The notes: a model not told the origin generated them from the letters alone. Counted from the stretch's first letter, positions 28,660-59,888 are shown. The stretch is 64,000 nt of DNA from an uncultured delta proteobacterium (GCA_963715335.1 CAVQRZ010000023.1:83711-147710); one strand, 5' to 3'. Program-made: numbers and translations.

Positions 28660-30168
28660 TTACAAAAACAGCTGGTAGGCCTGGTTGCGAGTCTCTTCGA
28701 CATACCGGTAACCGAGATTTTCAAGGAAGGCCTGCAGCTGCGGCTCCTGCCCTTTTGGTATTTCCAGGCCAACCAGGACCCTGCCAAAATCACCACCCTG
28801 TGTGCGATAGTGGAACAATGAGATATTCCAGTCTGCGCCCATTGATGCGAGGAACCGTGCCAAAGCACCGGGCCGTTCAGGGAACCAGAAGCGGAACAAG
28901 CGCTCCCCGGTCACGTCAGGAGAACGACCGCCGACCATATAACGAACATGGGTCTTGGCCAGTTCGTCGTCAGTCAGGTCGATGCTTTCAAAACCTTGCT
29001 GCGTCAATTGCTCGCGAAAGGCCTGGCGCTTTTTATCGCCATCAATGGCTATACCGACAAAGATATAAGCCGATTCACGACCAGACAGGCGATAGTTGAA
29101 CTCGGTAATATTCCTGTCACCGACAACTTCACGGCAAAAACGGAACAACGCTCCGGGTTCCTCCGGAATGGTGACAGCAAATAACGCTTCCTGTTTCTCG
29201 CCGATCAGGGTGCGTTCAGCCACATAGCGCAGGCGATCGAAATTCATGTTGGCGCCCGAATTGATCGCGACCAGCGACTGACCAGTCACTCCTTTGTCGC
29301 GTACATATTTTTTCAACCCCGCAACAGCAAGGGCTCCGGCCGGCTCAACGATTGAGCGGGTGGCCTGGTAAACACTCTTCACCGCACTACAGATTTCATC
29401 CACATCGACCAGGATAATCTCATCGACATGCCGGCGACAGATATCGAACGTCAGTTTACCAACCTCGCGTACGGCAACGCCGTCAGCGAAGATCCCGACT
29501 GAATCGAGTTTGACGCGACGGCCGGCGGCCAGCGAGCGGGCCATGGCGTCACTGTCGACAGGCTCGACTCCAATCACCCTGATATCCGGGCAAAGCTCTT
29601 TGAGAAACAACGATACGCCTGCAAGCAGTCCGCCACCACCGACCGGGACAAAAACCGCATCGATCCGGCCGGCGCTCTGGCGAAGGAGCTCATCGGCAAC
29701 TGTCCCCTGCCCTGCGATAACCAGTTCGTCGTCGAACGGCGGGATGAAGACCATACCGGACTGCGCGACCAGGGAGTCACAATGTTCAGCAGCTTCCGAG
29801 TAGTTGTCGCCAAACAGAACCACCTTGACGCCAAACGCCTTAACTGCTGCAACCTTGATGGCAGGGGTCGTCACCGGCATCACGATGGTTGTGTCAATCC
29901 CGAGCTTCTGGCCTGAGAAAGCGACGCCCTGGGCATGGTTGCCGGCTGAAGCCGTAATGATGCCCAAAGCTCTTTCTGCATCGCTTAAGTTGGCGATTCG
30001 ATTATAGGCGCCACGAATTTTGAAAGAGAAGACTGGCTGCAGGTCCTCACGCTTGAGCAGCACGCGATTGTTCAGCAATTGGGACAGGTAGGCCGACTCC
30101 TCGAGGGGGGTCTCAATGGCAGCCTCATAGACCTTGGATGTCAGAATTTGTTTGAATAATTTATGCAT
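28660..30168 (-). CDS. ilvA: Threonine ammonia-lyase, biosynthetic (two ACT-like C-domains)
   Basis: Start taken at MHKLFKQILTSKVYEAAIETPLEE (ATG 30168). FKIRGAYN PLP-lysine motif. 502 aa. Confidence 0.9.
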   Translation of the reverse strand: MHKLFKQILTSKVYEAAIETPLEESAYLSQLLNNRVLLKREDLQPVFSFKIRGAYNRIANLSDAERALGIITASAGNHAQGVAFSGQKLGIDTTIVMPVTTPAIKVAAVKAFGVKVVLFGDNYSEAAEHCDSLVAQSGMVFIPPFDDELVIAGQGTVADELLRQSAGRIDAVFVPVGGGGLLAGVSLFLKELCPDIRVIGVEPVDSDAMARSLAAGRRVKLDSVGIFADGVAVREVGKLTFDICRRHVDEIILVDVDEICSAVKSVYQATRSIVEPAGALAVAGLKKYVRDKGVTGQSLVAINSGANMNFDRLRYVAERTLIGEKQEALFAVTIPEEPGALFRFCREVVGDRNITEFNYRLSGRESAYIFVGIAIDGDKKRQAFREQLTQQGFESIDLTDDELAKTHVRYMVGGRSPDVTGERLFRFWFPERPGALARFLASMGADWNISLFHYRTQGGDFGRVLVGLEIPKGQEPQLQAFLENLGYRYVEETRNQAYQLFL

Positions 30169-30448
30169 GCAGGGATTCTGCCACGAAGACCTGGAGAGAC
30201 AAAGAAAAAACTGGCAGATTCGTCGTCCGTTAACGAACATAAGCCAATAATTTACAGCTTCTTTGCCAGGCTTCGCCATGACCCAGGATCGTAGGGCCAA
30301 TAATGACAAGTGCCCGCCAGAAACAGAAGATTATTTCCACTTAATGATCGACAACTGTATACAGTTTCGCTATACTTCAAAATCTGATTCTATCCGGGGT
30401 TCAGTCCTCCGGAGCATATATTTATTGACGTCATAAAGGAGAGAGATC

Positions 30449-32071
30449 ATGCCGGAATTCTTTTACCAGAACCCGTATCCCGTCGGTGCAGACAAGACCA
30501 GCTACTACAAGGTCGAAGGTTCGGAGAAGTATGTCTCCGTCGAAAGCTTCAATGGTCGGGATGTCCTCAAGGTCGATCCGGAAGCACTGACTGTGTTGTC
30601 CAGCATTGCCATGAAGGATGTGTCCTTTCTGCTGCGCAAGGAGCACAACGAGCAAGTCGCCAAGATTCTGATGGACCCCGAAGCCTCCCGTAACGACAAG
30701 GGTGTGGCGATGGCATTCCTGCGCAACGCCATGGTTTCGGCCCAGTTCGAACTGCCGACCTGCCAGGACACCGGCACGGCAACTATCGTTGCCAAAAAAG
30801 GTCAACAGGTCTGGACCGGTGTTAACGATGCGGAATATCTTTCCAAGGGGGTTTTCAAGACTTACACCGAAGAGAACCTGCGCTACAGCCAGACCGTGGC
30901 CCTTGATATGTACGAAGAGAAGAACACCGGCACCAACCTGCCGGCGCAGATCGACCTTTACGCCACAGAGGGTGACGCCTACAAGTTCCTGTTCGTAGCA
31001 AAAGGTGGCGGTTCCGCCAACAAGAGCATGCTCTATCAGGAGACCAAGGCGCTGCTCACCCCGGAGAAGCTCTTTGACTATCTGGTCGCCAAGATGAAAA
31101 CTCTCGGCACCGCAGCCTGCCCTCCTTACCATCTCGCCTTCGTCATCGGCGGGACCTCGGCCGACGCAGTCATGAAGACCGTCAAGCTGGCGACTGCCAA
31201 GGAACTCGACAATCTGCCGACGGTCGGCAACGATCACGGCCAGGCCTTCCGTGATATCGAGCTGGAGAAGAAACTGCAGAAAGCTGCCCAGGACCTCGGC
31301 ATCGGTGCCCAGTTCGGCGGCAAGTACTTTACCCACGATGTCCGCGTCATCCGCCTGCCCCGCCACGGCGCATCCTGCCCGCTCGGCATGGCGGTTTCCT
31401 GCTCGGCTGACCGCAACATCAAGGCCAAGATCACCAGAGACGGCCTGTTTGTCGAAGAGATGGACCGCGATCCGGGCCGCCTGCTCCCCGAGCAGTATCG
31501 TATGGCCAAGCATGAGCATGGTCACAAGGTCGACCTCAACCAGCCGATGGAAGCCATCCTCGCCGAGTTGACCAAGCTCAAGTGCGGCGACGCCCTGTTG
31601 CTCAACGGCACCATCGTGGTCGGTCGCGACATCGCCCATGCCAAGTTCAAAGAGATCCTCGACAGCGGCAAACCATTGCCCGACTACCTGAAAAAACACC
31701 CGATTTACTACGCCGGACCGGCCAAGACCCCTGCCGGCAAACCATCAGGCTCCTTCGGCCCGACTACGGCCGGCCGGATGGACTCTTACGTCGGCCTGTT
31801 ACAGGAGAACGGCGGCTCAATGGTCATGATCGCCAAGGGCAATCGCTCGCAGCAGGTCACTGATGCCTGCAAGAAATTCGGTGGCTTCTACCTCGGCTCC
31901 ATCGGCGGCCCGGCCGCCTTGCTCGCCGAAGAAAACATCAAGAAGGTCGAGTGCATCGACTTCCCCGAACTCGGCATGGAAGCTGTCTGGCAGATCGACG
32001 TCGTCAATTTCCCGGCATTCATCCTGGTTGATGATAAGGGTAACGACTTCTTCAAGCAGTTGGGTCTGTAA
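30449..32071 (+). CDS. Class I (Fe-S) fumarate hydratase, fused alpha/beta
   Basis: 540 aa. CQDTGTA, GGGSANK and a C-terminal beta domain (GKGNRS). Confidence 0.9.
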
Positions 32072-32119
32072 ATCAGCCAACAAAAAGCCCCGGGGATTTC
32101 CCGGGGCTCAGATTGTTGA

Positions 32120-32155
32120 CGAACCCTGCACGTGATGCGGGGTTCGTTTTTTTTT
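32120..32155 (+). terminator. Rho-independent terminator of the fumarase gene
   Basis: CGAACCCTGCA-cgtga-TGCGGGGTTCG followed by T9. Paralogous to the hcp terminator. Confidence 0.85.
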
Positions 32156-32185
32156 GCCTGTCAGGTGGAGTATTTATGAAGTTTA

Positions 32186-32720
32186 GGGCAACAGATGGTT
32201 AATCTGTTGCCCTCGTTCTCTTATTTGAGATCCAAACACAAAAGTTGAAGAACAAAACCGTCGGGGTTGCCCGACAGCAACTTCATTTTCTTTGTAGCGA
32301 CAAAGAAAGGAAGCAAAAGAAAGCTTGGCGCTACGCTGGGCATGTCTGGCTCGGCAGGGCGGCGACCTCAATGCAGAACGTTCTAAACGATCAAGAGTCT
32401 ACGCTTCACCCGCAGGAGCCGAGGCTCTTGAGAGCCTCTCCTGCTGTGGAGACTTGCGTTGATAGAGGTTGTTTTGGCTTTTCCCTGGTAGATCACACGG
32501 CAAGGTCAGGCCCTTTGACACAGGGCCGGATCACCATCACAGCGGGTTCTTGAAGTCACAGACATCCGGCAAAGGAGATGCCCTCCGCAAGGAGAAGGCA
32601 CTTTTGCATACTTTTGTTGCCGGACAAAAGTATGGCGTCGGGCGGGACGCGACCCGCCGGTTTTGCTTTTAAGCTTTTCAAGAAAAGCAAAAAGGGCAAC
32701 AGATTAACCATCTGCTGCCC
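32186..32720. repeat. About 0.5-kb structured non-coding element, copy A, bounded by inverted REP-like hairpins
   Basis: GGGCAACAGATGGTTAATCTGTTGCCC at 32186-32212, and its inverted variant at 32694-32720. The interior is highly similar to 58253-58765, and no ORF is conserved between the copies. Confidence 0.8.
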
Positions 32721-32836
32721 TCTCTATCATGAATTCAGGTTAAACTTTTACAGCAGCCCCGCCCCGGGGGTTTCCGGGTGTTTTTAATTTCATGGCGGCG
32801 AAGAGAAGACTATTGAGAGAAGACAAGCTGAGATAC

Positions 32837-34651
32837 CTATCGTCCCTGATAAAACCCGGCCTGGGCATTATAAAGACCGGCATAAGCACCAGCAAGCCGC
32901 AACAGCTCAGCGTGGGTTCCTTTCTCGATAATCATTCCATCATCCATCACATATATCCGATCAGCCAACTGCACTGAAGAAAGACGGTGGCTGATGATCA
33001 GCGCGCTACGTTGACCGATGACATTGCGAAACGAACGGATCATCTCAGCTTCAGCCAGAGGGTCGAGGGAACTGCTCGGTTCATCAAATATCATCAGGTC
33101 AGCGCTACGGAACCAGGCCCTTGCGAGAGCGAGACGCTGCCACTCACCAATACTGAGCTCCTGACCGGCCTGAAAATGCGTGCCGAGCTGCGTATCAATG
33201 CCATCAGCAAACCGGTTTATGAACTGGTCCGCACCAGCAATTTTTGCCGCAGCAGTCAATTCATCAGCATTTGCTTCCTTCTCTGAATCTCCCAGCCATA
33301 TGTTCTCGGAGATTGGCAGATCGAATTGTGCGAAATCCTGGCTCACAACACTCAAATGGCGACGCCATGACCTCGGCAAGAACAATTTCAGGTCCTTGCC
33401 TTCCCAGCTAACCTGTCCTTCATCAGGGTCGTAAAGCCGGCAAATTAATTTTGCCAGGGTTGTCTTTCCTGCTCCATTCACCCCAACCAAAGCGACTATC
33501 TCACCTGGACGTACTTCGAGATTCACATTCTTTAGAGTATGCTCCTTACGACTTGGATAAGTGAATGAGAGATCACGACAGACAAGCCCCAAGGCTGCCG
33601 GCTCCGGCACGAAACTTTGTCCGTTCTCCAGCTCAACCTTTACCGGTAGGTCAATCAAATCATAAAAATGTCTCAAGAACAGGTTGTCCTCATAGAGCCA
33701 ACCCAGCCCCTGAAGAACATTCTGCAGAGCTGTCAAGGCTCTCTGATAACCTTGAAAATACATAACGATAACACCAAGAGTCATCGCCCCCTGGATCGCC
33801 ACAAAAACCATCGCGGCCAGAGTTCCATATAGTGCGATTGTTGCACCGCCCTGCGCCAGGATGTCGCGCCTGACACGCCTTTTACTGATGTCGAGGCGCC
33901 CCTGACGCAACTTGTCACGCAAATCCCGGTAACGCCCACGGAATAAATCACCGATACCCAGCAGACGGATTTCACGAGCAAAATCAATACTGGTCATCAT
34001 CCAGTGGTAGAACCAGGCTTGCCGTTCGAGTTCAACCCGGTCTCGCTCAAAGGTATAGAGTTGGCGGGCATAGATAAGACGCACCAGCCCTGCAGGGACA
34101 GCGGCCAGAAGGAGAGCCAACCCAACGGCCCAATGAAAGGAGAACAACAGCCCGACGATACCAAAAAGTATCAGGAGGTTCTGCAGAGTCTGCTTCAACC
34201 CATTGACGATGTTGGCCGGACGTGACAAGGCGTCTTGTTGAGCAAGATGGAGGGTATTGTGATATGCAGGGTCTTCATAATAACCGAGATCGACTGCAAT
34301 TGACTTTTCGTGGATAAGGTCTGAGACAAAGTCAGAGACAGCCAGAGATTGTGCTTCCGTGACATATGCAGCGATACTGTTAATTGACGCAGTCGCCAAC
34401 GCGACCAGGCCAGCAAGCCCGACCCAGATTAAAACTTGCGTTACCGCACCGTCACCTCTTTCAAGCAATGCGGCACCGAGAGAATCAACTATCTGCTTCA
34501 GCAGCAACAACGCGAACACCGGCAAAGCCGTCTGTACTATCATCAACAACAGGCTTGCAAGAGTCCAGCGAGGGGTTGCTGCCCAAACCAGTCGCCAGGC
34601 ACGGTGCAGATTGAAGATTCCTTTGATTCGCATTTTTATCGAACTATTCAT
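32837..34651 (-). CDS. ABC exporter, fused permease-ATPase (RiPP cassette)
   Basis: Six-TM N-domain, then Walker A GVNGAGKTTLAKL, signature LSIGEWQR and Walker B LMIFDEPSS. Start set at MNSSIK (34651, TAGGAT upstream); 34666 and 34633 are also possible. Confidence 0.85.
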   Translation of the reverse strand: MNSSIKMRIKGIFNLHRAWRLVWAATPRWTLASLLLMIVQTALPVFALLLLKQIVDSLGAALLERGDGAVTQVLIWVGLAGLVALATASINSIAAYVTEAQSLAVSDFVSDLIHEKSIAVDLGYYEDPAYHNTLHLAQQDALSRPANIVNGLKQTLQNLLILFGIVGLLFSFHWAVGLALLLAAVPAGLVRLIYARQLYTFERDRVELERQAWFYHWMMTSIDFAREIRLLGIGDLFRGRYRDLRDKLRQGRLDISKRRVRRDILAQGGATIALYGTLAAMVFVAIQGAMTLGVIVMYFQGYQRALTALQNVLQGLGWLYEDNLFLRHFYDLIDLPVKVELENGQSFVPEPAALGLVCRDLSFTYPSRKEHTLKNVNLEVRPGEIVALVGVNGAGKTTLAKLICRLYDPDEGQVSWEGKDLKLFLPRSWRRHLSVVSQDFAQFDLPISENIWLGDSEKEANADELTAAAKIAGADQFINRFADGIDTQLGTHFQAGQELSIGEWQRLALARAWFRSADLMIFDEPSSSLDPLAEAEMIRSFRNVIGQRSALIISHRLSSVQLADRIYVMDDGMIIEKGTHAELLRLAGAYAGLYNAQAGFYQGR

Positions 34652-34774
34652 AGATCCTATCCACATGGAGTCATTACATTTTTCACCAGAAACACATAAA
34701 AAAAATATGCATACTATAGCATTTAAATCATATATTTGTCGTAACAACCATATTCGACATATAATAGCTGCCTT

Positions 34775-35662
34775 ATGTCTGATCGTGACAAAATATACGG
34801 GCAAGAACTTGCTATTGGCCCCCTCATCTACCACCTCTATGCGATTGATGAATGGGGCGCAAGTATTCTTCATGGAATCAGCACACATCTTGCCTGTAAT
34901 GAAATTTCGAGAACGGCTGATCGAATAATATTATTGTTTCATAATGAGCCGGCAGCCTTTACTTCGAAAAAAGTTCCCGCCGCTTTTTCAACCTGTGAAG
35001 TTGAAGAAGATTCGTGGTATTTCCGCAAAAACCTGATTGACACGACCTGGCAATCGGATCAATCAACCTGCACCTTCTGGTCAGCAGGGGTTGACACGTT
35101 AATCGGGCCCGTTCGTTTTCATCTTCCATGGAGCCTTGTTGTTGATGATCTTGTTGCACGGGGGGGAGGACTGATCCACGCCGGGCTGGCCGACCACGGA
35201 GGCTCCGGATATCTGTTTGCTGCCCCGCCAAGCGGCGGTAAGAGCACAACATTGGCAACAGCCCCAGCCGAGTGGATGATTATGAGTGATGACGCTGCTC
35301 TCGTCTGGCCAGACGAAAATGGCTGGCTGGCCAGTCCCCTGCCATCCTGGGGAGACCAACTCAAGCCTGACGAGCCCTGGCCCTGGCCACAGATGGCGCT
35401 TGACTCGACTTGCGCTCTGAGCAACATTTTGCAGCTTGATAAAGGCGCCCATGTCGAACTCGCCAGGCTGAAAGAGTCAGCGGCCCTCCCCTTTATCTAC
35501 CAGGCTTTAAGTGAGTATCCCGTCATTATTCTGGCAAACATCAGTTATAGAGAAGAATACTTCCGTAGCGCAGCGCAAATGGCCCGCGTTCTCTCAACAT
35601 GGCAGCTTACCCTGCCGAAGCATGGCGACATCTGGCACCTGCTCCAGCAGAGAACCAAATGA
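34775..35662 (+). CDS. HPr-kinase-like P-loop protein (ScmC-like)
   Basis: GGGLIHAGLADHGGSGYLFAAPPSGGKSTTLA resembles the HprK/HprK-related kinase core with a Walker A. 295 aa. Confidence 0.7.
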   Translation: MSDRDKIYGQELAIGPLIYHLYAIDEWGASILHGISTHLACNEISRTADRIILLFHNEPAAFTSKKVPAAFSTCEVEEDSWYFRKNLIDTTWQSDQSTCTFWSAGVDTLIGPVRFHLPWSLVVDDLVARGGGLIHAGLADHGGSGYLFAAPPSGGKSTTLATAPAEWMIMSDDAALVWPDENGWLASPLPSWGDQLKPDEPWPWPQMALDSTCALSNILQLDKGAHVELARLKESAALPFIYQALSEYPVIILANISYREEYFRSAAQMARVLSTWQLTLPKHGDIWHLLQQRTK

Positions 35663-36300
35663 ACACACTAACCAACACCTTCATATACAAAGGCAGAAGC
35701 ATGTGGCCATGTTTTCAGGAAGGCGACCTCCTGGTGCTGGCTGACATCGAATTCAACCAGATTCGTGCAGGCGATTGCATAGCGTACCAGAGGACCAGCG
35801 GCAGAAAAGCGGTGCACCGTGTAGTTGCGCTTCAAAGCTCACTTATCACACGCGGCGATTCTTTACCTTGCGTTGACACTGAATCGGTCAAATCGGAGCA
35901 GGTTATAGGGCGGGTTGTGAGTTTTTATCGCTTCGGCAGGCGGCATCAAGTTGTCGGAGGGTTCATAGGCAGGATTGTGGGTCTGTTCTACCGATATGCA
36001 GGCCGTATCGATCCGCAAAGACAGGCGCGAGGCGGCTGGCTAGCGCGCAAAATCCGCTTTTTCAGCATGGCGATACTGAAAACAATTCAATGTGATGGGA
36101 AAGCTGAGAGGCTTAAACTTGATGGGGCAGATGAATTGAAGGTGTGGACTATAGCCGGGAGGGTTATCGGACAACAGGATCAGGACTCAAGGCAATGGAA
36201 GATTGCCTGGCCATGGATGTTTTTGTTGAAATCAGGGAGACTTTTAAGATGGGGCAGAGGTCTTATTTTTCGCCGTTACCTACAGAACAGTAAACACTAG
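35659..36300 (+). CDS. S26-family peptidase, Sec11/SipW (Ser-His) type, with an uncharacterised C-terminal half
   Basis: GRSMWPCFQEGDLLVL matches SGSMEP-F-RGD of ER/archaeal-type signal peptidases. VHRVV stands in place of the bacterial KRV box. The start ATG overlaps the upstream stop (ATGA). Confidence 0.7.
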   Translation: MNTLTNTFIYKGRSMWPCFQEGDLLVLADIEFNQIRAGDCIAYQRTSGRKAVHRVVALQSSLITRGDSLPCVDTESVKSEQVIGRVVSFYRFGRRHQVVGGFIGRIVGLFYRYAGRIDPQRQARGGWLARKIRFFSMAILKTIQCDGKAERLKLDGADELKVWTIAGRVIGQQDQDSRQWKIAWPWMFLLKSGRLLRWGRGLIFRRYLQNSKH

Positions 36301-36469
36301 CTCCATTGCCACGCGTACAGTTACCCTGGTTTGACGCCCCTGACCCAGATGCGCATTGGGTTGGACCGCCAGGCGTGGGCGTAGTACCAGTCGCGCATTC
36401 ACCGAAAATCGGCTGACATGAGTCAACAGACCTGACCATCGGCTCTTTCCATAAACGCTTATTACTCAT
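36263..36469 (-). CDS. Candidate RiPP precursor peptide (68 aa, Cys/Gly/Ser/Thr-rich)
   Basis: MSNKRLWKEPMVRSVDSCQPIFGECATGTTPTPGGPTQCASGSGASNQGNCTRGNGASVYCSVGNGEK. RBS GAGGGGG lies 7 nt upstream, and the ORF has its own promoter. It sits immediately downstream of the two rSAM/SPASM genes. Confidence 0.65.
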   Translation of the reverse strand: MSNKRLWKEPMVRSVDSCQPIFGECATGTTPTPGGPTQCASGSGASNQGNCTRGNGASVYCSVGNGEK

Positions 36470-36499
36470 ACAACAGCCCCCTCAAAAATGATTTCCGCG

Positions 36500-36528
36500 A
36501 TTATAGCCCTATCCGGGTATCTTGCCAA
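36500..36528 (-). promoter_or_regulatory. Near-consensus sigma70 promoter for the precursor ORF
   Basis: Minus strand reads TTGGCA-17 nt-TATAAT. The -10 element ends about 30 nt upstream of the ATG. Confidence 0.65.
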
Positions 36529-36572
36529 CCCCCAGATTATGTAGCCAATCTGCAAGATGAGCCTCGACACCT

Positions 36573-37646
36573 TTAGCCTCTGCGCCTCTTTAACGGGAAC
36601 AACCCTTGTTCAGCGGCTTGTTGACAGAACCAGTATGGTGCCAGCAGGTCACCGGAGAGCTGATAATTGGAGGCGACACAACTACCAAGGCAGTTTTCCT
36701 GCATCAAACAATCACGGCAAATCCCCTGAAGACTCTTCGGCAAGCCTTCCCTCAGGCCCATAAGCACCTGGTGGCTCTGCCAAATCTCCTTGAGCTTTAC
36801 TGACATGACAGCACCCATCGACAGTTCCGGAACATGTTGACCAACACCACACAACGAGTAGGCCCCTGAGGGCAGGATGCCGAGCACGTGCATGATGTTA
36901 CAGACCCCGTCATCCTCCCCGGAGATTATGCGTGAGAGAGGTCGGAAAGCATGTGGAACGCCCATTTGAATGGGGAGGCTGAACTGCTGTGACCACTTCT
37001 CAGAAACTTTTGCAGATATATCCAGGATCTCCTTGATACTCAAGGCATCTCCTTCATTAGAGAGGGTCTCAGCTCTCAGGACCGGTTGCAGCACGTTCAG
37101 TTTGACTGCGCCAGCGCCCAACCCCTCAGCCAGGGCAAAAAAATCAGGCAGTTGTCTTTTGTTCGATTGTTGCAAGGTCAAAATCAATTCAGGACGGAAA
37201 CCCGCGCCAACCAATGCGCGAATCCCCATAATGGTTTTTTTAAAACCACTTTTGACGCAGCGAATCGCATCGTGGGTCCTGTCATTTGCTCCATCCAGGC
37301 TCACGGACACCCTGCTCACTCCGCTGTCCCGCATCAAGCTTGCCAGTTCATCATTAACCAACATACCGTTAGTCTCGACAATCGCCTCTAGATTGTATTC
37401 TCTCTGCAAATCAAGAAGCTCACGGAAACACGGATGCAGTGTCGGTTCCCCGCCAGTCCACTTGATGGCAGAAAGACCCAACGGGAGAGCCTGTTCGATG
37501 GCATGCCTCAATATTCGCGGCTCAAGGACAACTTGCTCATCCTGCTTTTGACGTTCCGGCACGAACCAGCAATGCCGACAAGCACAGTTACAACCACTGG
37601 TCAGGTAAGCATAGAAGGTATTCAATGTCGGCACAGTCACGGCCAT
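36573..37646 (-). CDS. Radical SAM/SPASM peptide-modifying enzyme 2
   Basis: YLTSGCNCACRHC cluster motif and C-terminal CGVG...CRDCLMQENCLGSC (SPASM). Start at MAVTVPTL (ATG 37646, AGAGGGG upstream) overlaps the upstream stop by 10 nt. Confidence 0.85.
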   Translation of the reverse strand: MAVTVPTLNTFYAYLTSGCNCACRHCWFVPERQKQDEQVVLEPRILRHAIEQALPLGLSAIKWTGGEPTLHPCFRELLDLQREYNLEAIVETNGMLVNDELASLMRDSGVSRVSVSLDGANDRTHDAIRCVKSGFKKTIMGIRALVGAGFRPELILTLQQSNKRQLPDFFALAEGLGAGAVKLNVLQPVLRAETLSNEGDALSIKEILDISAKVSEKWSQQFSLPIQMGVPHAFRPLSRIISGEDDGVCNIMHVLGILPSGAYSLCGVGQHVPELSMGAVMSVKLKEIWQSHQVLMGLREGLPKSLQGICRDCLMQENCLGSCVASNYQLSGDLLAPYWFCQQAAEQGLFPLKRRRG

Positions 37647-38746
37647 AACGATAGCCCCTCTGCTGCAAGTTTCTCCTGAAATCGTTTGAGACAGGTCGAC
37701 GGGCATGGCTGGTCAACTTTCCCGGTCGCTGTAAACGCCGTACCGGGACAGTTCCCGGTACAACTTGACTGCCATTCACACAGACGACATTCGTCAAACT
37801 CTTCAAGCGCAATTTCCCACCGTTCACGCAACCGGCATAATGACTCGGCATTCTGCCAGACCTCAACCAGTGGAGTCTCTCCGACCTTGCCGAGGACCAT
37901 GTGCGGCAGCATGACACAGGGGATATAAGCACCATCTGAACGAACCGCAAGGCTGTCGTAAATACAGCCACAACCGACCAGACGTCCCCGACCCGGCACA
38001 GGAGTCCCAGACCGTCGTGCCTCCTCCATTTCACTGAACATACGCCAGTCCGCCAGAGGCCCTGCATTTGCGCGAATCCGCCCCGGATATTGTTTGTCAA
38101 GGTTCGCCATGATTTTTATCGCTTTTAAATGCTCTCTGGTGTTAAGCAAAACACCCGTGCCGTATTTTGTCGAAGTCCCGAGCGAGGAAGCGGCATTGGT
38201 ACTGAAAGAAGGGAGCCTCAGTTCTGTCAGCAATAGTCGTGCGATTTTCGGAAGGTCATCTATATTGCCGGGATGGATGGTCACTCTGACTGTTACTGGC
38301 AGTTTGGTACTCTGCAAAGCTCTGATTCCTGATAACGCCGGCTCAAATGTTCCCTTACCGCGAAGACTTTCATGAATTTCTGCTGTCGAGCCATCCAGTG
38401 ACACCTGGACCATGTCACACCGGCCTGTCTGCTGCAGGTGAACAGCAATTTGCGAGGTCAGGAAACTGCCGTTGGTCAACACGGAAAAACGCATGCGATT
38501 GGCAACAATCCCGTCAACCAAGTCTAAAAAATCATCCCTGATCAACGGTTCACCACCCTGCAGGGTTACATTCATCACCTGGCAGTTTGCCAGTTCCTCG
38601 AAAAAGGTTAACCAGAATTCAGTAGGCAGGTCGGCGTAGATTACATCAGGGTTGTTAAGATAGTAACAATAGCTGCAGTTCGCGTTGCAGCGGCTGGTAA
38701 TTTCAAGATCCAGAGAGCGTGGAGTACGCATCACTTGCGGAGACAT
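37637..38746 (-). CDS. Radical SAM/SPASM peptide-modifying enzyme 1
   Basis: LEITSRCNANCSYC and C-terminal GCGC...YIPC...CRLCEWQSSCTGNCPG (SPASM). ATG 38746 overlaps the PqqD stop (TAATG), with GGAGCAGGA upstream. Confidence 0.85.
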   Translation of the reverse strand: MSPQVMRTPRSLDLEITSRCNANCSYCYYLNNPDVIYADLPTEFWLTFFEELANCQVMNVTLQGGEPLIRDDFLDLVDGIVANRMRFSVLTNGSFLTSQIAVHLQQTGRCDMVQVSLDGSTAEIHESLRGKGTFEPALSGIRALQSTKLPVTVRVTIHPGNIDDLPKIARLLLTELRLPSFSTNAASSLGTSTKYGTGVLLNTREHLKAIKIMANLDKQYPGRIRANAGPLADWRMFSEMEEARRSGTPVPGRGRLVGCGCIYDSLAVRSDGAYIPCVMLPHMVLGKVGETPLVEVWQNAESLCRLRERWEIALEEFDECRLCEWQSSCTGNCPGTAFTATGKVDQPCPSTCLKRFQEKLAAEGLSLWP

Positions 38747-39051
38747 TAATCCTGCTCCCAAACCCCTACAGCACCGAGGATTGCTAATGTCTCCATTAAA
38801 CCAATGACCTGCTGGGCCGTCGAGTCATCAATGCCCTCGTATCTGTTCCTTAGGCAATCAACAACTTCACCCAGGCTACGTTTTCCATCCAGCAACTTCC
38901 ATACGTCAACCGCCGTGCTGTTGAGCATCTGCACCTTTCCATTATCAGGGTCAAACAACAGCGCGCAATCATCGTCTTCGATGCGCAGAACGAGACCTGG
39001 ATTGACCGCCAGGCGACTGTCCATATCGATTTTCAATTCGTTGTTATCCAA
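38746..39051 (-). CDS. PqqD-family protein (RiPP recognition element)
   Basis: LLFDPDNGKVQMLNSTAVDVWKLLDGKRSLGEVVDCLRNRYEGIDDSTAQQVIGLMETL is the classic PqqD pattern. Probable TTG start. Confidence 0.8.
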   Translation of the reverse strand: MDNNELKIDMDSRLAVNPGLVLRIEDDDCALLFDPDNGKVQMLNSTAVDVWKLLDGKRSLGEVVDCLRNRYEGIDDSTAQQVIGLMETLAILGAVGVWEQD

Positions 39052-39072
39052 AGGAATCCTTAATAGAAGAGA

Positions 39073-39360
39073 CTATTCTATTGGCAGCTTTACAACGAGA
39101 CCGTGACGTAGAGCGAAACCAAGGATGGATCGAGTCTGTCGTTCAGCATCAGCCCGGTTGAGGTCAAAGTTCTGCAACAGGAAATTCAAACAATCACTAC
39201 GGTTAAAAAATCGTCCTTCAGGCAGCAACGACGCCTGCTCGAAGAGCGCCGCGGCAGCGTGATTGACAGTAACCATCACATCCCGATTAGCAATCAGCAT
39301 AACTGCATCCTCGTCAAAAAATTCAATGAAAACATGAGGAGAGAGTTGGTAGCAATCCAC
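39073..39360 (-). CDS. Second, divergent PqqD-like protein
   Basis: IEFFDEDAVMLIANRDVMVTVNHAAAALFEQA...DCLNFLLQNFDLNRADAERQTRSILGFALRHGLVV follows the PqqD wHTH pattern. GTG start. Confidence 0.65.
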   Translation of the reverse strand: MDCYQLSPHVFIEFFDEDAVMLIANRDVMVTVNHAAAALFEQASLLPEGRFFNRSDCLNFLLQNFDLNRADAERQTRSILGFALRHGLVVKLPIE

Positions 39361-39390
39361 CAGGCGTACACCTTTCGAATATGATCCTTC

Positions 39391-39420
39391 ATGTTAGTTG
39401 TTTTACAAGTGGACTGTCAA
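39391..39420 (-). promoter_or_regulatory. Candidate sigma70 promoter of the pqqD-rSAM operon
   Basis: Minus strand reads TTGACA-18 nt-TAACAT, about 30 nt upstream of the GTG at 39360. Confidence 0.45.
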
Positions 39421-39459
39421 ATAAACGGAGGGATGAAATCATTCACCGCCAGAGAATGA

Positions 39460-40162
39460 TCAAAACCCTGACAGCGCCATCAGCAGCGGCAGGAGAAAGG
39501 TTGTCATCAGACCATTCAACCCGATCGCCAAACCAGCAGCGGCACCGGCAAGACGGTTGACCTCGAGCATTCTCGCCGTACCGATGCCGTGGGCGGACGT
39601 GCCGATCGCAAGCCCCATCGACACCGGGGAAGTCACACCGATGCGGCGGCAGAACTCCGGGCCGCAGACCGCCCCGAGACAACCGGTCAGAACGACCAGG
39701 GCGGCGGTCAGAGGCGCAATGCCACCGAGCTTGTCAACGATACTGATGGCAATCGGTGTGGTCACCGACTTCGGTGCCAGGGAGAGGATCACCTCCCGGC
39801 TGCCACCGAGGAGCCAGGCCAGTCCGCAGGCTGAAATAATCGAGGCGAGAGAGCCGGCAAAGATGCCGGCCAGGATCAGTCGCTTGCGTTTCCAGATCTC
39901 TTCACGGCGCTGGTACAGAGGGACTGCCAGGGCAACCACGGATGGACCGAGCAGGAACAGGATCATGTCGCCGCCACGGGCATAATCACGGTATTCGATC
40001 CCGGTGCCTTTAAGCAGCAGAATGATTGCAACGATCGCCAACAGGACCGGGTTGGCCCATACGCTGTTGACGCGCCGGTAGAGGGTTTGCGCCAAGCAGG
40101 TAGACGACCAGCGTCAGGCCGATGCCGAACAGCGGAGTCTTGACCAGTTCAGCCCACATCAT
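39460..40162 (-). pseudogene. lrgB: LrgB/CidB-family membrane protein, apparently interrupted by a 1-nt frameshift near 40095
   Basis: ATGATG at 40162 overlaps the lrgA stop and encodes MMWAELVKTPLFGIGLTLVVYLL, a typical LrgB first helix. The rest (AQTLYRRVNSVWANPVLLAIV...) is in another frame starting at 40095. Confidence 0.6.
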
Positions 40163-40502
40163 CGCTCCCCCGGTTTTCGAGTTTCTGGGCCAGCAGACCG
40201 GTGACAGCCATGACTACAAAAGTACTGATTATTGTTGCGACGGTAATCGGCAACCATTCTGCAGCGATCAGGTCACTGTAAACCATGACGCCGACGCCGG
40301 CCGGGACAAAGAACAGCGTCATGTTGGACAGCAGGATTTCCGCTGCCTCCTCGATCCATTTCACATCAACCCAGCCGACAATTAAACCAAGCAACAGCAG
40401 CCCCATCCCCATGACGTTACCTGGAATCGGTAAGCCCAGGGACCGGCTGATGATTTCACCACACAGCTGGAACAGCAGCAGGAATGTCAGACCACGAACC
40501 AT
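40149..40502 (-). CDS. lrgA: CidA/LrgA holin-like protein
   Basis: 117 aa, four TM segments. LLFQLCGEIISRSLGLPIPGNVMGM. Confidence 0.85.
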   Translation of the reverse strand: MVRGLTFLLLFQLCGEIISRSLGLPIPGNVMGMGLLLLGLIVGWVDVKWIEEAAEILLSNMTLFFVPAGVGVMVYSDLIAAEWLPITVATIISTFVVMAVTGLLAQKLENRGSDDVG

Positions 40503-40513
40503 GAGGCTCCCTC

Positions 40514-40547
40514 ATTCTGGATACTGAATACTGAATTCTGAATACCA
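40514..40547. repeat. Heptamer tandem repeat (ATTCTGG ATACTGA ATACTGA ATTCTGA ATACC)
   Basis: Read directly. Located between lrgA and the TPR gene. Related to the 25340-25444 units. Confidence 0.7.
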
Positions 40548-40560
40548 GTCACTCGACACA

Positions 40561-41353
40561 TCAGCCTTCGTCCTGGAGGCCTTCGATAAGCGCCTTGACT
40601 TCGGCGCAGATATCCTTCGATGCCTGGCTCTTCTCATGTTTGAGAAATTCCCTGAAACAGTGCAGAGACTCCTGAATCTGCTCCTGGTCCAGGTAGATAT
40701 TTCCCAGCGTCAGGTAAGCAAAGGAGAAATCCGGATCGAGGGCTATGGCCTTGCGGCAGTATTTTTCTGCCTCGGCCAGATGCATCATTCTCATAGTGGA
40801 ACTCGGCCAGGTTGAAATGGCCCTGCGGATCTTCAGGTTCGAGCTCGATGGCCTTCTCAAAACAATCGCGAGCTTCATCCGCACGTCCGGTCGCGAAACA
40901 GACATCGCCAAGTGAATAGAGGGCAAAAGCCGACTCCGGGTCCTGTTCGAGAGCCTGTCGATAGCACTCCTCGGCCTTGTCCATGCGCTCCTGATGAAAG
41001 TGGATCAGGCCGAGACTGACTCGGGCGTCGATTTGACCCGGGTCACGTAACAGAACATCCTCGTAGACCCGGCATGCTTCTTCAGGACGTCCCAGTTCAA
41101 AATAAACATCGCCCAGGTCAAATTGCAGATCATATTCTCCAGGAAGTTCTCCAACGACTTTCTCAAGCACTCTGGCCGCCTCTTCAAGATGACCCGCCTC
41201 GACCAGGGCTTCCCCCAGGAAGGCACGGGTTTCGACGTCGTCCCCCTGCTCCTGCAAAAGCCTTTTGAGGATCCGTACGGCCTCTTCCGCCGCACCTTTT
41301 TCAAGCGCCTGCTCCGCCCTGCTTATGGAAATTTGTCCTTCATTCATCTGCAT
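40561..41353 (-). pseudogene. TPR-repeat protein, apparently interrupted by a 1-nt frameshift near 40790
   Basis: TPR sequence continues from frame 1 (...GHFNLAEFHYE) into frame 2 (MHLAEAEKYCRKAIALDPDFSFAYLTLGNIY...). The span of 793 nt is not a multiple of 3. Start taken at MQMNEGQ (41353, GAGGAG upstream). Confidence 0.6.
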
Positions 41354-42677
41354 TCTCCTCGTATTCTGTGTTAAGAACCGGCGCAAACTCTTCATTCAAG
41401 GTGTCAAGCATGTCCCACACTCCCCATGGCTCAGCCGGAATGACTTCAACCTCGACCTGCAGGTGGTCGGCAAGGTCGCGAATGGACACATCGTCCAGGA
41501 ACACATCTTCAGCTTCACGCAGCATGACATCCGGAACCAGCAGTATCTGGCCGAGTTCTGCATTGGCCAACTGCTCAAGCAGATCCTGGCCGGTCAGAAG
41601 TCCGGCCACGGTAACATCCCCGGCAAAGAAGCGATTCTCAACCGTATGCACCCGCAGGTCAGTACCGCATTTTTCGTTCAGTAAATCAGCAAACCAGCGG
41701 AGTTCCCCGGCAGCGGACACCCCGGTCACCAGGCTGACCGGCGGCAGCTTGAGCGGTTGCGCCTCTTTGATCACTGCCTCGGCCTGCATACGAAACATCG
41801 GGACCAGGCCGACGCCATTCTCAATCTGGGACAGTTCTTCGTAGGACTCCAGGGGAGGAAAATCCTTTGCCGCCCTGAGATAGAGTTCGTCAGCGGCGAA
41901 CATAAATCGTGTGCCGAGCGTTTCCAGCAACTCGGACTGTTTCTCCCCTATCCAATCTGCCAGTTCCAGAGCTTCGCCCCTGGTGTGGATCCTCAATTCT
42001 GGAAGACGCTGCCGGTGCCCGGTCAATCCGACCGGGACAATCGCCAGAGATTTGACTCCGGGAGCAAGGCAGGACAGTTCTTTCAAGGTCTGCTCCAGGT
42101 GAACACCATCGTTAATTCCGGGACAGACAACGACCTGGGTGTGCAACTCTATGCCTCCATTGACCAGGGTCCTGATTATCGGCATGACATCCGGTGCAGG
42201 TTTGCCAAGCAGTTTTTGCCGCAGCGTGTTATCGACGGCATGCACTGAGATGTAGAGTGGCGAGAGCTGCTTACGCAAAATCAGCTTCAGGTCATCCTCA
42301 GTCAGGTTGGTCAGGGTGATATAGGCCCCGTAAAGATAGGAAAACCGGTAGTCTTCGTCCTTGATGTACAGGGTACGCCGCATGCCCTGCGGCAGTTGGT
42401 GGACGAAACAGAAGATACAGTTGTTCCCGCACTGTTTCGGTTCCGGATGCGGCAACAAGATGCCGAGCGGCTCCTCGCTGTCGTGCTCGATGTCGAGTTC
42501 CCAGATTTCACCATCGACGCGTTCAACTTCGATCCACAGCTTTTCGCGAGGTTCTTCGATCAGGTAATCAACCAGGTCATTGACCTGTTCGCCGTTCAAG
42601 CGAACCAGACGGTCACCGGGCTGCAACCCCAATTCATCGGCAATACTGCCGGGCTCTATGGCAAGGATTTCAAGCAT
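41340..42677 (-). CDS. PDZ + DUF512 (radical-SAM-like) protein
   Basis: N-terminal PDZ (GLQPGDRLVRLNG), then CGNNCIFCFVHQ and a DUF512-like remainder. 445 aa. Confidence 0.8.
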   Translation of the reverse strand: MLEILAIEPGSIADELGLQPGDRLVRLNGEQVNDLVDYLIEEPREKLWIEVERVDGEIWELDIEHDSEEPLGILLPHPEPKQCGNNCIFCFVHQLPQGMRRTLYIKDEDYRFSYLYGAYITLTNLTEDDLKLILRKQLSPLYISVHAVDNTLRQKLLGKPAPDVMPIIRTLVNGGIELHTQVVVCPGINDGVHLEQTLKELSCLAPGVKSLAIVPVGLTGHRQRLPELRIHTRGEALELADWIGEKQSELLETLGTRFMFAADELYLRAAKDFPPLESYEELSQIENGVGLVPMFRMQAEAVIKEAQPLKLPPVSLVTGVSAAGELRWFADLLNEKCGTDLRVHTVENRFFAGDVTVAGLLTGQDLLEQLANAELGQILLVPDVMLREAEDVFLDDVSIRDLADHLQVEVEVIPAEPWGVWDMLDTLNEEFAPVLNTEYEENADE

Positions 42678-59536: not shown

Positions 59537-59888
59537 TGGTGGAGGTGGCGGGAATCGAACCCGCGTCCGAAAATCTTTCACGTCAGGCGTCTACATGCGT
59601 AGTTCGTGTTTTGCTTAACCCGTAAGAGCTCCCACGAACAGGATATTCTTGCGGGGGAGTCCGCTTAAGTTTCGCCTTCACGCCACGGACACTCGCGAAG
59701 ACTATCCCACTAAATTAGCGTCTCAAAACCCACATGGGCGATGAATCAGGAGACGAGGCAGCAATTAAGCTGCCAGTGCGTAACGAACGTCAGTGTCGGC
59801 GTTTGTTAGTGTTGGGCTTTGTTACGGAGCCAGCCCACTCCGGCATGCAACCAGCGCTTCCAATCCCCGTCGAAACCTTGGCACCCCC
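59537..59888 (-). ncRNA. ssrA: tmRNA (SsrA)
   Basis: 5' end GGGGGUGCCAAGGUUUCGACGGGG. 3' end GCGGGUUCGAUUCCCGCCACCUCCACCA. Internal tag frame 59765-59800 encodes ADTDVRYALAA-stop. Lies adjacent to smpB. Confidence 0.95.

Follow-up and report, generated by a model that had tools for sequence, protein, structure and literature searches.

A 64,000-nucleotide stretch of DNA from an uncultured delta proteobacterium (GCA_963715335.1, CAVQRZ010000023.1:83711-147710), hereafter the window, carries at positions 32,837 to 39,420 what its sequence indicates to be a divergent, intact and apparently functional SynChlorMet (SCM) cassette. The cassette is very probably dedicated to a ribosomally synthesized peptide that is modified post-translationally (RiPP), with a 68-aa peptide encoded within it as the substrate of two radical S-adenosylmethionine (rSAM)/SPASM enzymes. 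The whole reading, in which thioether chemistry is the most likely modification of this peptide, is considered probable, and the thioether chemistry taken by itself is a tentative assignment made by analogy. The locus is far beyond what chance would produce, with E values of 1e-134 for ScmE and 2e-114 for ScmF and with purifying selection on the small open reading frame (ORF). A sequence-only reading of the window had described these genes as a complete RiPP-type cassette with no characterized product. The cassette exists, lies where it was said to lie and was in essence read correctly; the claim of novelty went too far, since both the cassette and the class of its precursor had already been catalogued.

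An ORF scan with translation of the region 30000-42500 (ORFs of at least 40 aa) found all eight ORFs where the sequence-only reading had placed them. They are given here with two promoter-like sites.

39360-39073, minus strand: gene for protein P95, 95 aa, GTG start
39051-38746, minus strand: scmD-like gene, 101 aa
38746-37637, minus strand: scmE, 369 aa when begun at ATG 38746, the start used in relatives (the frame is open to TTG 38761, which gives 374 aa)
37646-36573, minus strand: scmF, 357 aa
36469-36263, minus strand: predicted precursor gene (divergent ScmA), 68 aa
34775-35662, plus strand: scmC-like gene, 295 aa
35659-36300, plus strand: S26 peptidase gene, 213 aa
34651-32837, minus strand: fused permease-ATPase ABC exporter gene, about 604 aa; ORF open to 34888
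36528-36500, minus strand: sigma-70-type promoter-like site before the precursor gene, TTGGCA-17-TATAAT, 11/12 consensus positions
39420-39391, minus strand: promoter-like site before the five-gene operon, TTGACA-18-TAACAT, 10/12, a pattern match only

The minus-strand genes from 39360 to 36263 are tightly packed, as had been noted. Direct reading of the sequence placed the ScmD/ScmE stop/start overlap TAATG at 38748-38744 (within gattaATGtct), the 10-nt ScmE/ScmF overlap at 37646-37637 (read in ttATGgccgTGA; overlap letters ATGGCCGTGA) and the ATGA coupling of the ScmC and peptidase genes at 35659-35662 (in aaATGAac). The motifs quoted in the earlier description, including CNANCSYC, CNCACRHC and PPSGGKSTT, were all present in the translations. 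The D, E and F genes adjoin one another, with stop and start codons that overlap, and the ScmC gene lies 0.9 kb off, so a PqqD-type gene, two rSAM/SPASM genes and an HprK-type gene occur in one locus. The precursor ORF begins 103 nt past the end of scmF, and the GTG start codon of P95 follows the TTGACA-18-TAACAT site at a distance of 31 nt. The divergent fused ABC exporter was present as described, and its start was moved from 34888 to 34651 by alignment to the orthologue in the closely related locus L085, so that 123 bp lie between the divergently transcribed exporter and ScmC genes.

SCM models were the best NCBIfam match for four proteins (ScmE, ScmF, ScmD and ScmC), in agreement with the SCM assignment made in the sequence-only reading. 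With the SCM system as modelled there (ScmA TIGR04252, ScmC TIGR04249, ScmD TIGR04248, ScmE TIGR04250, ScmF TIGR04251), the window shares the D-E-F gene order, a PqqD-like RiPP recognition element (RRE), two PqqE-like rSAM/SPASM enzymes, a Cys/Gly-rich peptide directly after ScmF and an HprK-related ScmC. The clade to which the window belongs differs in having a second RRE (P95), a convergent module of ScmC and peptidase, and a divergent ABC exporter.

The two rSAM enzymes gave the strongest assignments. ScmE matched TIGR04250 over model positions 1-353 of 358 with 447.2 bits (E 3.7e-134), above the trusted cutoff of 400, and ScmF matched TIGR04251 over its full length with 382.7 bits (E 1.9e-114), just below the same cutoff. 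The runner-up family for ScmF was heme b synthase AhbD with 143 bits, a margin of 240 bits, followed by NirJ-type models. Pfam Radical_SAM and SPASM exceeded the gathering score in both proteins. The motifs CNANCSYC and CRLCEWQSSCTGNC are present in ScmE, and CNCACRHC and CRDCLMQENCLGSC in ScmF. Both proteins have the CxxxCxxC motif of the SAM cluster and the seven-Cys SPASM motif for two auxiliary [4Fe-4S] clusters. In ScmE, C25/C29/C32 and eight C-terminal cysteines (C264, C266, C282, C325, C328, C334, C338, C357) were invariant among 21 homologues; in ScmF, C19/C23/C26 and the seven SPASM cysteines C249, C266, C310, C313, C319, C323 and C341 were invariant in 46 of 46 homologues. The claim of two rSAM/SPASM enzymes therefore stands, with the cluster ligands intact. 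The solved structures nearest to ScmE and ScmF were those of SkfB, PqqE and the cytosylglucuronate decarboxylase BlsE. Identity as an anaerobic sulfatase-maturating enzyme (anSME), which had been named as the finding that would overturn the peptide interpretation, was rejected: the anSME model gave 62 bits compared to 383 for ScmF's own model, and the ORFs of 40 aa or more between 30000 and 42500 included no sulfatase.

The 68-aa peptide comprises a leader (KRLWKEPMVRSVD...IFG) with the pattern K-R-x-W-x-E-P-x-V-x-S-V/I-D, then four C-x-x-G repeats (C25, C39, C51, C61), and a C-terminus ...GNGEK. Direct searches of NCBIfam and Pfam returned no match for this ORF. Two word-indexed homologues with 71-79% identity were found in 5.8 billion proteins, both in the same place after ScmF and convergent with the peptidase and ScmC genes, and orthologues were present at the same position in loci L001-L012, L054, L064 and L085. 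The ratio of nonsynonymous to synonymous substitution rates (dN/dS), computable for five of six orthologues, was 0.08-0.17, and the ORF is therefore a genuine coding gene. Its ATG is preceded, at 7 nt, by the Shine-Dalgarno sequence GAGGGGG. TTGGCA-17-TATAAT (36528-36500) was the top-scoring promoter-like site in the 8.2 kb scanned (32000-40200); the promoter proposed for this gene is a pattern match at 11 of 12 positions. The coding status and precursor nature proposed for the ORF were upheld. When a profile of the three closest peptides was run against the whole library, only 12 clusters and no new architecture emerged, so the window's peptide subtype is rare among called proteins. The exact 68-aa sequence was absent from a 15-billion-protein collection, though neighbour proteins of the same record were present, and the window precursor was probably not called in its source record.

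The peptide belongs to a family that accompanies SCM enzymes. Via ScmE alignment 79 genome loci were collected, and 13,096 small ORFs from these loci and the window were searched with a hidden Markov model (HMM) iterated from the window peptide. Forty-five loci were informative, containing ScmE, ScmF and >1.5 kb of downstream sequence, and 19 others held only distant non-SCM rSAM genes. The HMM converged on 59 ORFs (56 unique), 55 of them on the ScmE strand. At least one family ORF was found in 39 of the 45 informative loci, usually starting <150 bp after ScmF and in some loci in 2-5 copies, and the iterated HMM found none in the 19 non-SCM rSAM loci.

The leaders of the family share [W/Y]-x-x-P-x-[L/V/I] and usually have a Gly 1-4 residues ahead of the first core Cys. 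The cores consist of 2-8 repeats C-x-x-G-[S/T/N/G]-[G/S/T]-A with a modal Cys-Cys spacing of 10, and Gly occupies position +3 after 204 of 225 post-leader Cys. In 44 of 56 peptides the first core Cys is preceded by a Gly at a distance of at most 5 residues; in 38 of these 44 a small or aliphatic residue or Gly stands two positions ahead of that Gly, which fits the -3/-1 rule of S26 peptidases. Tandem arrays of 2-5 precursor genes were observed in Bacteroidia and some Chloroflexota (L040 12964-14164, L037 2343-3117, L042 13038-13671, L022 12186-12710); their leaders are near-identical (KEYQIPELVDLN...) and their short two-repeat cores vary between copies.

The SCM precursor was not new to databases. 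The statement in the sequence-only reading that no precursor had been identified for SCM is outdated: NCBIfam holds TIGR04252 'SCM_precur_ScmA', which matched 8 of 20 diverse family peptides (best E 6.6e-10). Of ten peptides scored individually, one (39.1 bits) passed the cutoff of 35 bits. TIGR04252 is thus narrow, and most SCM precursors of this survey would go unnamed by it. The window subclade aligned with canonical ScmA-type peptides by hhalign (98.1%, E 8.3e-14) with the leader aligned. From these profile comparisons, the 68-aa ORF is assigned as a divergent ScmA and a member of the cassette's precursor family.

Two small proteins are predicted to bind the leader. The 101-aa protein matched Pfam PF05402 PqqD with 48.8 bits (cutoff 23.4), as the PqqD-family label given to it had implied, and its top NCBIfam model was TIGR04248 ScmD (64.5 bits, under the cutoff of 100). 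The 95-aa protein, P95, gave nothing at E<=0.01 in NCBIfam or Pfam. Its family aligned with the ScmD family in a profile-profile comparison (88% probability, E 3.1e-6, 80 columns). An AlphaFold2 (AF2) model from an alignment of 23 homologues had a mean confidence (pLDDT) of 87.7 and beta-beta-beta-alpha-alpha-alpha topology, as in the winged-helix fold of RREs, where a three-stranded sheet precedes three helices. In Foldseek the top PDB folds were the leader-bound lasso-peptide RREs TbiB1 (5v1v_A, E 1.1e-5, TM 0.72/0.77) and TfuB1 (6jx3_B), with overall E values of 1e-5 to 1e-4 and TM scores of 0.65-0.77; other RRE domains ranked after them. On this modelled fold P95 is a second stand-alone, PqqD-like RRE with predicted leader binding, and the earlier description of it as PqqD-like holds despite the lack of a family-model match. 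Its homologues (tblastn, >=45 bits) occurred in 10 of the 45 informative loci, only where ScmE is 53-74% identical to that of the window. In the 15-billion-protein collection P95 was present only as a 75-aa call (P0141), from a record that also carries an identical ScmE; the protein was probably called too short in the source record. In a delta-proteobacterial metagenome-assembled genome (MAG; L015 9668-11098), ScmD and ScmE form one polypeptide of 476 aa with PqqD, Radical_SAM and SPASM domains. This natural RRE-rSAM fusion supports a functional partnership of ScmD and ScmE.

The convergent module encodes an HPr-kinase-like protein and a peptidase. For the 295-aa protein the top NCBIfam model was TIGR04249 ScmC (67.5 bits, cutoff 125), TIGR04352 HprK_rel_A gave E 1e-4, and orthologues bear the precomputed Pfam annotation PF27840 'ScmC'. 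When the profile of its family was compared to PDB sequences, HPr kinase/phosphorylases were the top four matches (1jb1, E 0.0012), as expected from the earlier assignment. About 65 residues were aligned, spanning H-G-x-L...G-x-G-x-L...G-x-GKS...DD. The P-loop PPSGGKSTT is present, and H135, G155, K156 and D172/D173 of this HprK-like motif were invariant among 21 homologues. A single-sequence AF2 model of ScmC had a pLDDT of 30.5, too low for use.

The 213-aa protein matched TIGR02228 (archaeal-type signal peptidase I) with 52.8 bits (cutoff 51.85), and no SCM-named NCBIfam model matched it. The residues G12-x-S14-M15, H53-R54 and T64-x-G66-D67 were invariant in 18 cassette homologues, corresponding to the S26 Ser/His catalytic motifs of the archaeal/ER/SipW type and confirming its placement as a Sec11/SipW-type enzyme. 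The catalytic Ser is already at residue 14, and the peptidase therefore has no N-terminal transmembrane anchor. All 18 cassette peptidases matched TIGR02228, and 11 of them also TIGR02754, the cytoplasmic maturation protease of nickel superoxide dismutase (NiSOD). The C-terminal half (about 100 residues) is conserved and had no family match. In the window the C-terminus is 17 aa longer than in close relatives (213 vs 196 aa in L085), and the last 38 nt of the ORF (36263-36300) overlap the 3' end of the convergent precursor gene; in relatives both genes only abut.

The exporter matched Pfam ABC_tran with 109 bits, ABC_membrane weakly and NCBIfam MsbA with 269 bits, far under the cutoff. It is an MsbA/HlyB-like fused permease-ATPase without a peptidase domain, and the gene adjoining ScmC is kept in close relatives with 53-76% identity. 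The sequence-only reading had presented these genes as the full parts list of a RiPP pathway. The gene identities and the RiPP-cassette interpretation are borne out, and the kinase, leader-peptidase and exporter roles are predictions from homology.

In most of the collected loci the order was ScmD-ScmE-ScmF-ScmA(n)-ScmC-S26 on one strand. The window's clade, with ScmE 53-84% identical to the window's, comprises Desulfuromonadales/Geobacteraceae-type MAGs and MAGs titled 'uncultured delta proteobacterium'; in it P95 stands ahead of ScmD, the ScmC and S26 genes are inverted and convergent on ScmA, and the ABC exporter is divergent from ScmC. Of the 45 informative loci, 32 gave a tblastn match to ScmC; the corresponding numbers were 29 for the S26 peptidase and 10 for P95. 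Judging by record titles, hosts of SCM cassettes include Desulfuromonadales, Geobacteraceae, Desulfobacterales, Syntrophobacteraceae, Chloroflexota, Acidobacteriota, Aminicenantes, KSB1, Omnitrophota, Armatimonadetes, Bacteroidia, Campylobacterota and others, so that the parts co-occur across many phyla. Most of these lineages are described as anaerobes.

The following pathway is inferred by analogy. The ScmA-like 68-aa peptide would be transcribed from its own strong putative promoter, and its W-x-x-P leader would be bound by the stand-alone RREs ScmD and P95, which would present the core to ScmE and ScmF. These enzymes might act as a pair, like the rSAM enzymes TrnC and TrnD, which work as a complex (PMC12093266). 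Together they would modify the four C-x-x-G-[S/T/N] repeats, with thioether formation (sactionine- or ranthionine-type) from each Cys sulfur being most likely. The acceptor may be the invariant Gly, by analogy with the rSAM/SPASM enzyme StsB, which makes Cys-to-Gly sactionines (PMC10288494). The HprK-like ScmC would probably phosphorylate a Ser or Thr of the peptide, as homologues of HPr kinase do at Ser in precursors of lasso peptides (PMC8498205). Leader removal would then fall to the anchor-less S26 peptidase, with cleavage probably on the C-terminal side of the conserved Gly23 (I-F-G | E-C), and the ABC transporter would export the product.

Several characterized or predicted systems share parts with this cassette. 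GeoRSP (TIGR04302/TIGR04303) and HPr-rel-A (TIGR04352/TIGR04353) are in-silico systems with a PqqD-family chaperone and an rSAM/SPASM enzyme and/or an HprK-related protein. Compared by model score, ScmD, ScmE, ScmF and ScmC matched them weakly (21-101 bits), far under the SCM scores. Sactipeptide and ranthipeptide pathways (SkfB, StsB, PapB, CteB, TrnC/TrnD) likewise involve an RRE and a leader-dependent SPASM rSAM enzyme acting on a Cys-rich core, and PapA/freyrasin is a precedent for a repeat core. ScmE and ScmF gave only 67-91 bits against SkfB, StsB and PapB, and the SCM RREs are separate proteins, whereas sactipeptide and ranthipeptide enzymes carry the RRE as an N-terminal domain. A C-x-x-G repeat of about 10 residues was not found described in the sactipeptide and ranthipeptide papers examined, and we know of no HprK-like protein or S26 peptidase in such pathways.

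The pyrroloquinoline quinone (PQQ) pathway (PqqA, PqqD, PqqE) shares a stand-alone PqqD and a PqqE-like SPASM enzyme, and the W-x-x-P of the SCM leader resembles the leader motif of PqqA. PqqE gave only 80-104 bits, and the SCM cassette differs in its two rSAM enzymes, in the Cys/Gly repeats that take the place of Glu...Tyr in the core, and in lacking pqqB, pqqC and pqqF. The S26 motifs G-x-S-M, H-R and G-D are shared with the NiSOD protease SodX (TIGR02754) and archaeal/SipW signal peptidase I; the SCM enzyme differs from these in the absence of a membrane anchor, the conserved C-terminal half of about 100 residues and the location in a RiPP cassette. To our knowledge, no S26 RiPP leader peptidase has been characterized. 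Lasso-peptide clusters of the paeninodin type also contain an HprK-like P-loop protein that modifies the precursor before maturation (PMC8498205). Those kinases target a C-terminal Ser, whereas the window peptide ends in ...GNGEK, and ScmC is extended at its N-terminus by about 120 residues.

Several points weigh against the SCM-type reading with thioether chemistry. ScmF, ScmD and ScmC did not reach their trusted cutoffs in NCBIfam, which leaves ScmE as the sole equivalog. The window peptide did not match TIGR04252 even at E<=1, so that this model would not name it as ScmA. The nearest characterized relatives of ScmE and ScmF (WgkB, AhbD, MftC, PqqE and SkfB) catalyze several different reactions, and homology therefore does not single out thioether formation. 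Of 203 repeats, only 133 have Ser or Thr at position +4 or +5, and a kinase acting on every repeat is therefore not evident. Strong tblastn matches to the ABC exporter were limited to 16 of the 45 informative loci. Both promoter assignments come from pattern matching, and the consensus scan gave 8 sites where chance would give 6.4. With only ScmE past its cutoff, an extra RRE and a rearranged module, the cassette should be regarded as a variant of SCM, neither a plain member nor something new in kind.

The explanation that best survives beside the thioether pathway keeps the same cassette and peptide substrate and assigns the rSAM enzymes another chemistry: C-C or C-O cross-links, epimerization, conversion of Cys to formylglycine or thioaldehyde as by anSME, backbone chemistry at the invariant Gly, or a product in which the Cys are left free, for example as metal ligands. 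ScmE and ScmF are about equally far from WgkB, AhbD, MftC, PqqE, SkfB, BlsE and anSME, all of which differ in chemistry, and the only invariant features of the core are Cys and the Gly at +3, which leaves the acceptor residue undefined. Cys-rich repeat cores associated with SPASM enzymes are mostly thioether substrates, as in sactipeptides and ranthipeptides, and a precedent exists for Cys-to-Gly sactionines (PMC10288494). On balance, such alternative chemistry is unlikely, though worth keeping in view.

Production of a PQQ- or mycofactocin-like redox cofactor used inside the cell is much less credible. It would account for the homology of ScmD to PqqD, the PqqE/MftC-like nature of ScmE and ScmF and the PqqA-like W-x-x-P of the leader; the host lineages named in the record titles are also mostly described as anaerobes. 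The cores of the family, however, vary in sequence, length and number of repeats (2-8) and may be encoded by 2-5 tandem genes, whereas cores of cofactor precursors are near-invariant; a dedicated ABC exporter is present in the window cassette and its close relatives, and the cassette shows no genes for partner oxidoreductases. That the small ORF is no substrate at all, with ScmE and ScmF acting on a non-peptide such as a tetrapyrrole (as AhbD/NirJ) or on a protein encoded elsewhere, is hardly conceivable: the second-best ScmF family is indeed AhbD, followed by NirJ-type models, but the ScmF model scored 383 bits against its 143, the operon encodes two RRE proteins, the peptide family accompanies 39 of 45 SCM loci over many phyla and none of the 19 non-SCM rSAM loci, and the cassette has no tetrapyrrole genes.

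With the SCM-type peptide pathway retained, the question of its novelty can be addressed. No paper on SynChlorMet, its accessions, ScmE/ScmF or a RiPP combining HprK and rSAM enzymes was found in the full-text literature searchable without subscription. This agrees with the earlier statement that no product of such an architecture is characterized, without proving it, and the SCM product seems to be uncharacterized. The in silico prediction of the SCM system and its likely precursor dates back over ten years. SCM peptides may constitute a chemically new RiPP class, which we consider a rather doubtful proposition. In such a class a SPASM pair, possibly a complex, would cross-link each C-x-x-G repeat of about 10 residues (e.g., as Cys-to-Gly thioether micro-rings), a cytoplasmic S26 enzyme would remove the leader, an HprK-like protein would tailor the core, and the second RRE would give each rSAM enzyme its own partner.

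What is new here is the recognition of the window peptide as a divergent ScmA missed by the current model, the repeat grammar of the precursors, the assignment of P95 as an RRE by predicted fold, and the S26 peptidase as a frequent, unmodelled component of the cassette (29 of 45 loci). The SCM cassette is spread over many, mostly anaerobic, phyla and has apparently never been characterized. The analysis provides a testable parts list: a precursor family, a candidate S26 leader peptidase and a compact eight-gene, two-RRE variant that might be produced in a heterologous host. What stands to be gained is the structure and chemistry of a radical-SAM-modified peptide of a possibly new kind, with no concept overturned.

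In L085, whose ScmE is 84% identical, the cassette occupies the same chromosomal site, beside lrgA and lrgB. In the window the neighbouring genes at 40634-42677 (minus strand) are lrgA, lrgB, a 253-aa ORF that appears TPR-like by eye and a gene for a DUF512/PDZ radical SAM protein, and this block is syntenic with L085 4024-6194. These look like ordinary chromosomal neighbours, not cassette parts. On the other side, a 760-bp gene-free gap (32072-32836) with many terminator-like hairpins separates a fumarate hydratase gene from the ABC exporter gene. A search of this gap against Rfam gave nothing near the gathering score. It contains imperfect inverted repeats of 57 nt (32172-32228 and 32678-32734), which are 75% complementary, are separated by 449 nt and have a hairpin of their own in each arm (AGGGCAACAGATGGTTAATCTGTTGCCCT), and it may be a remnant resembling a miniature inverted-repeat transposable element (MITE) or a scar of cassette insertion. 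Elsewhere in the window, an ordinary transfer-messenger RNA (tmRNA) gene was identified at 59537-59888 on the minus strand (Rfam RF00023, 201.7 bits).

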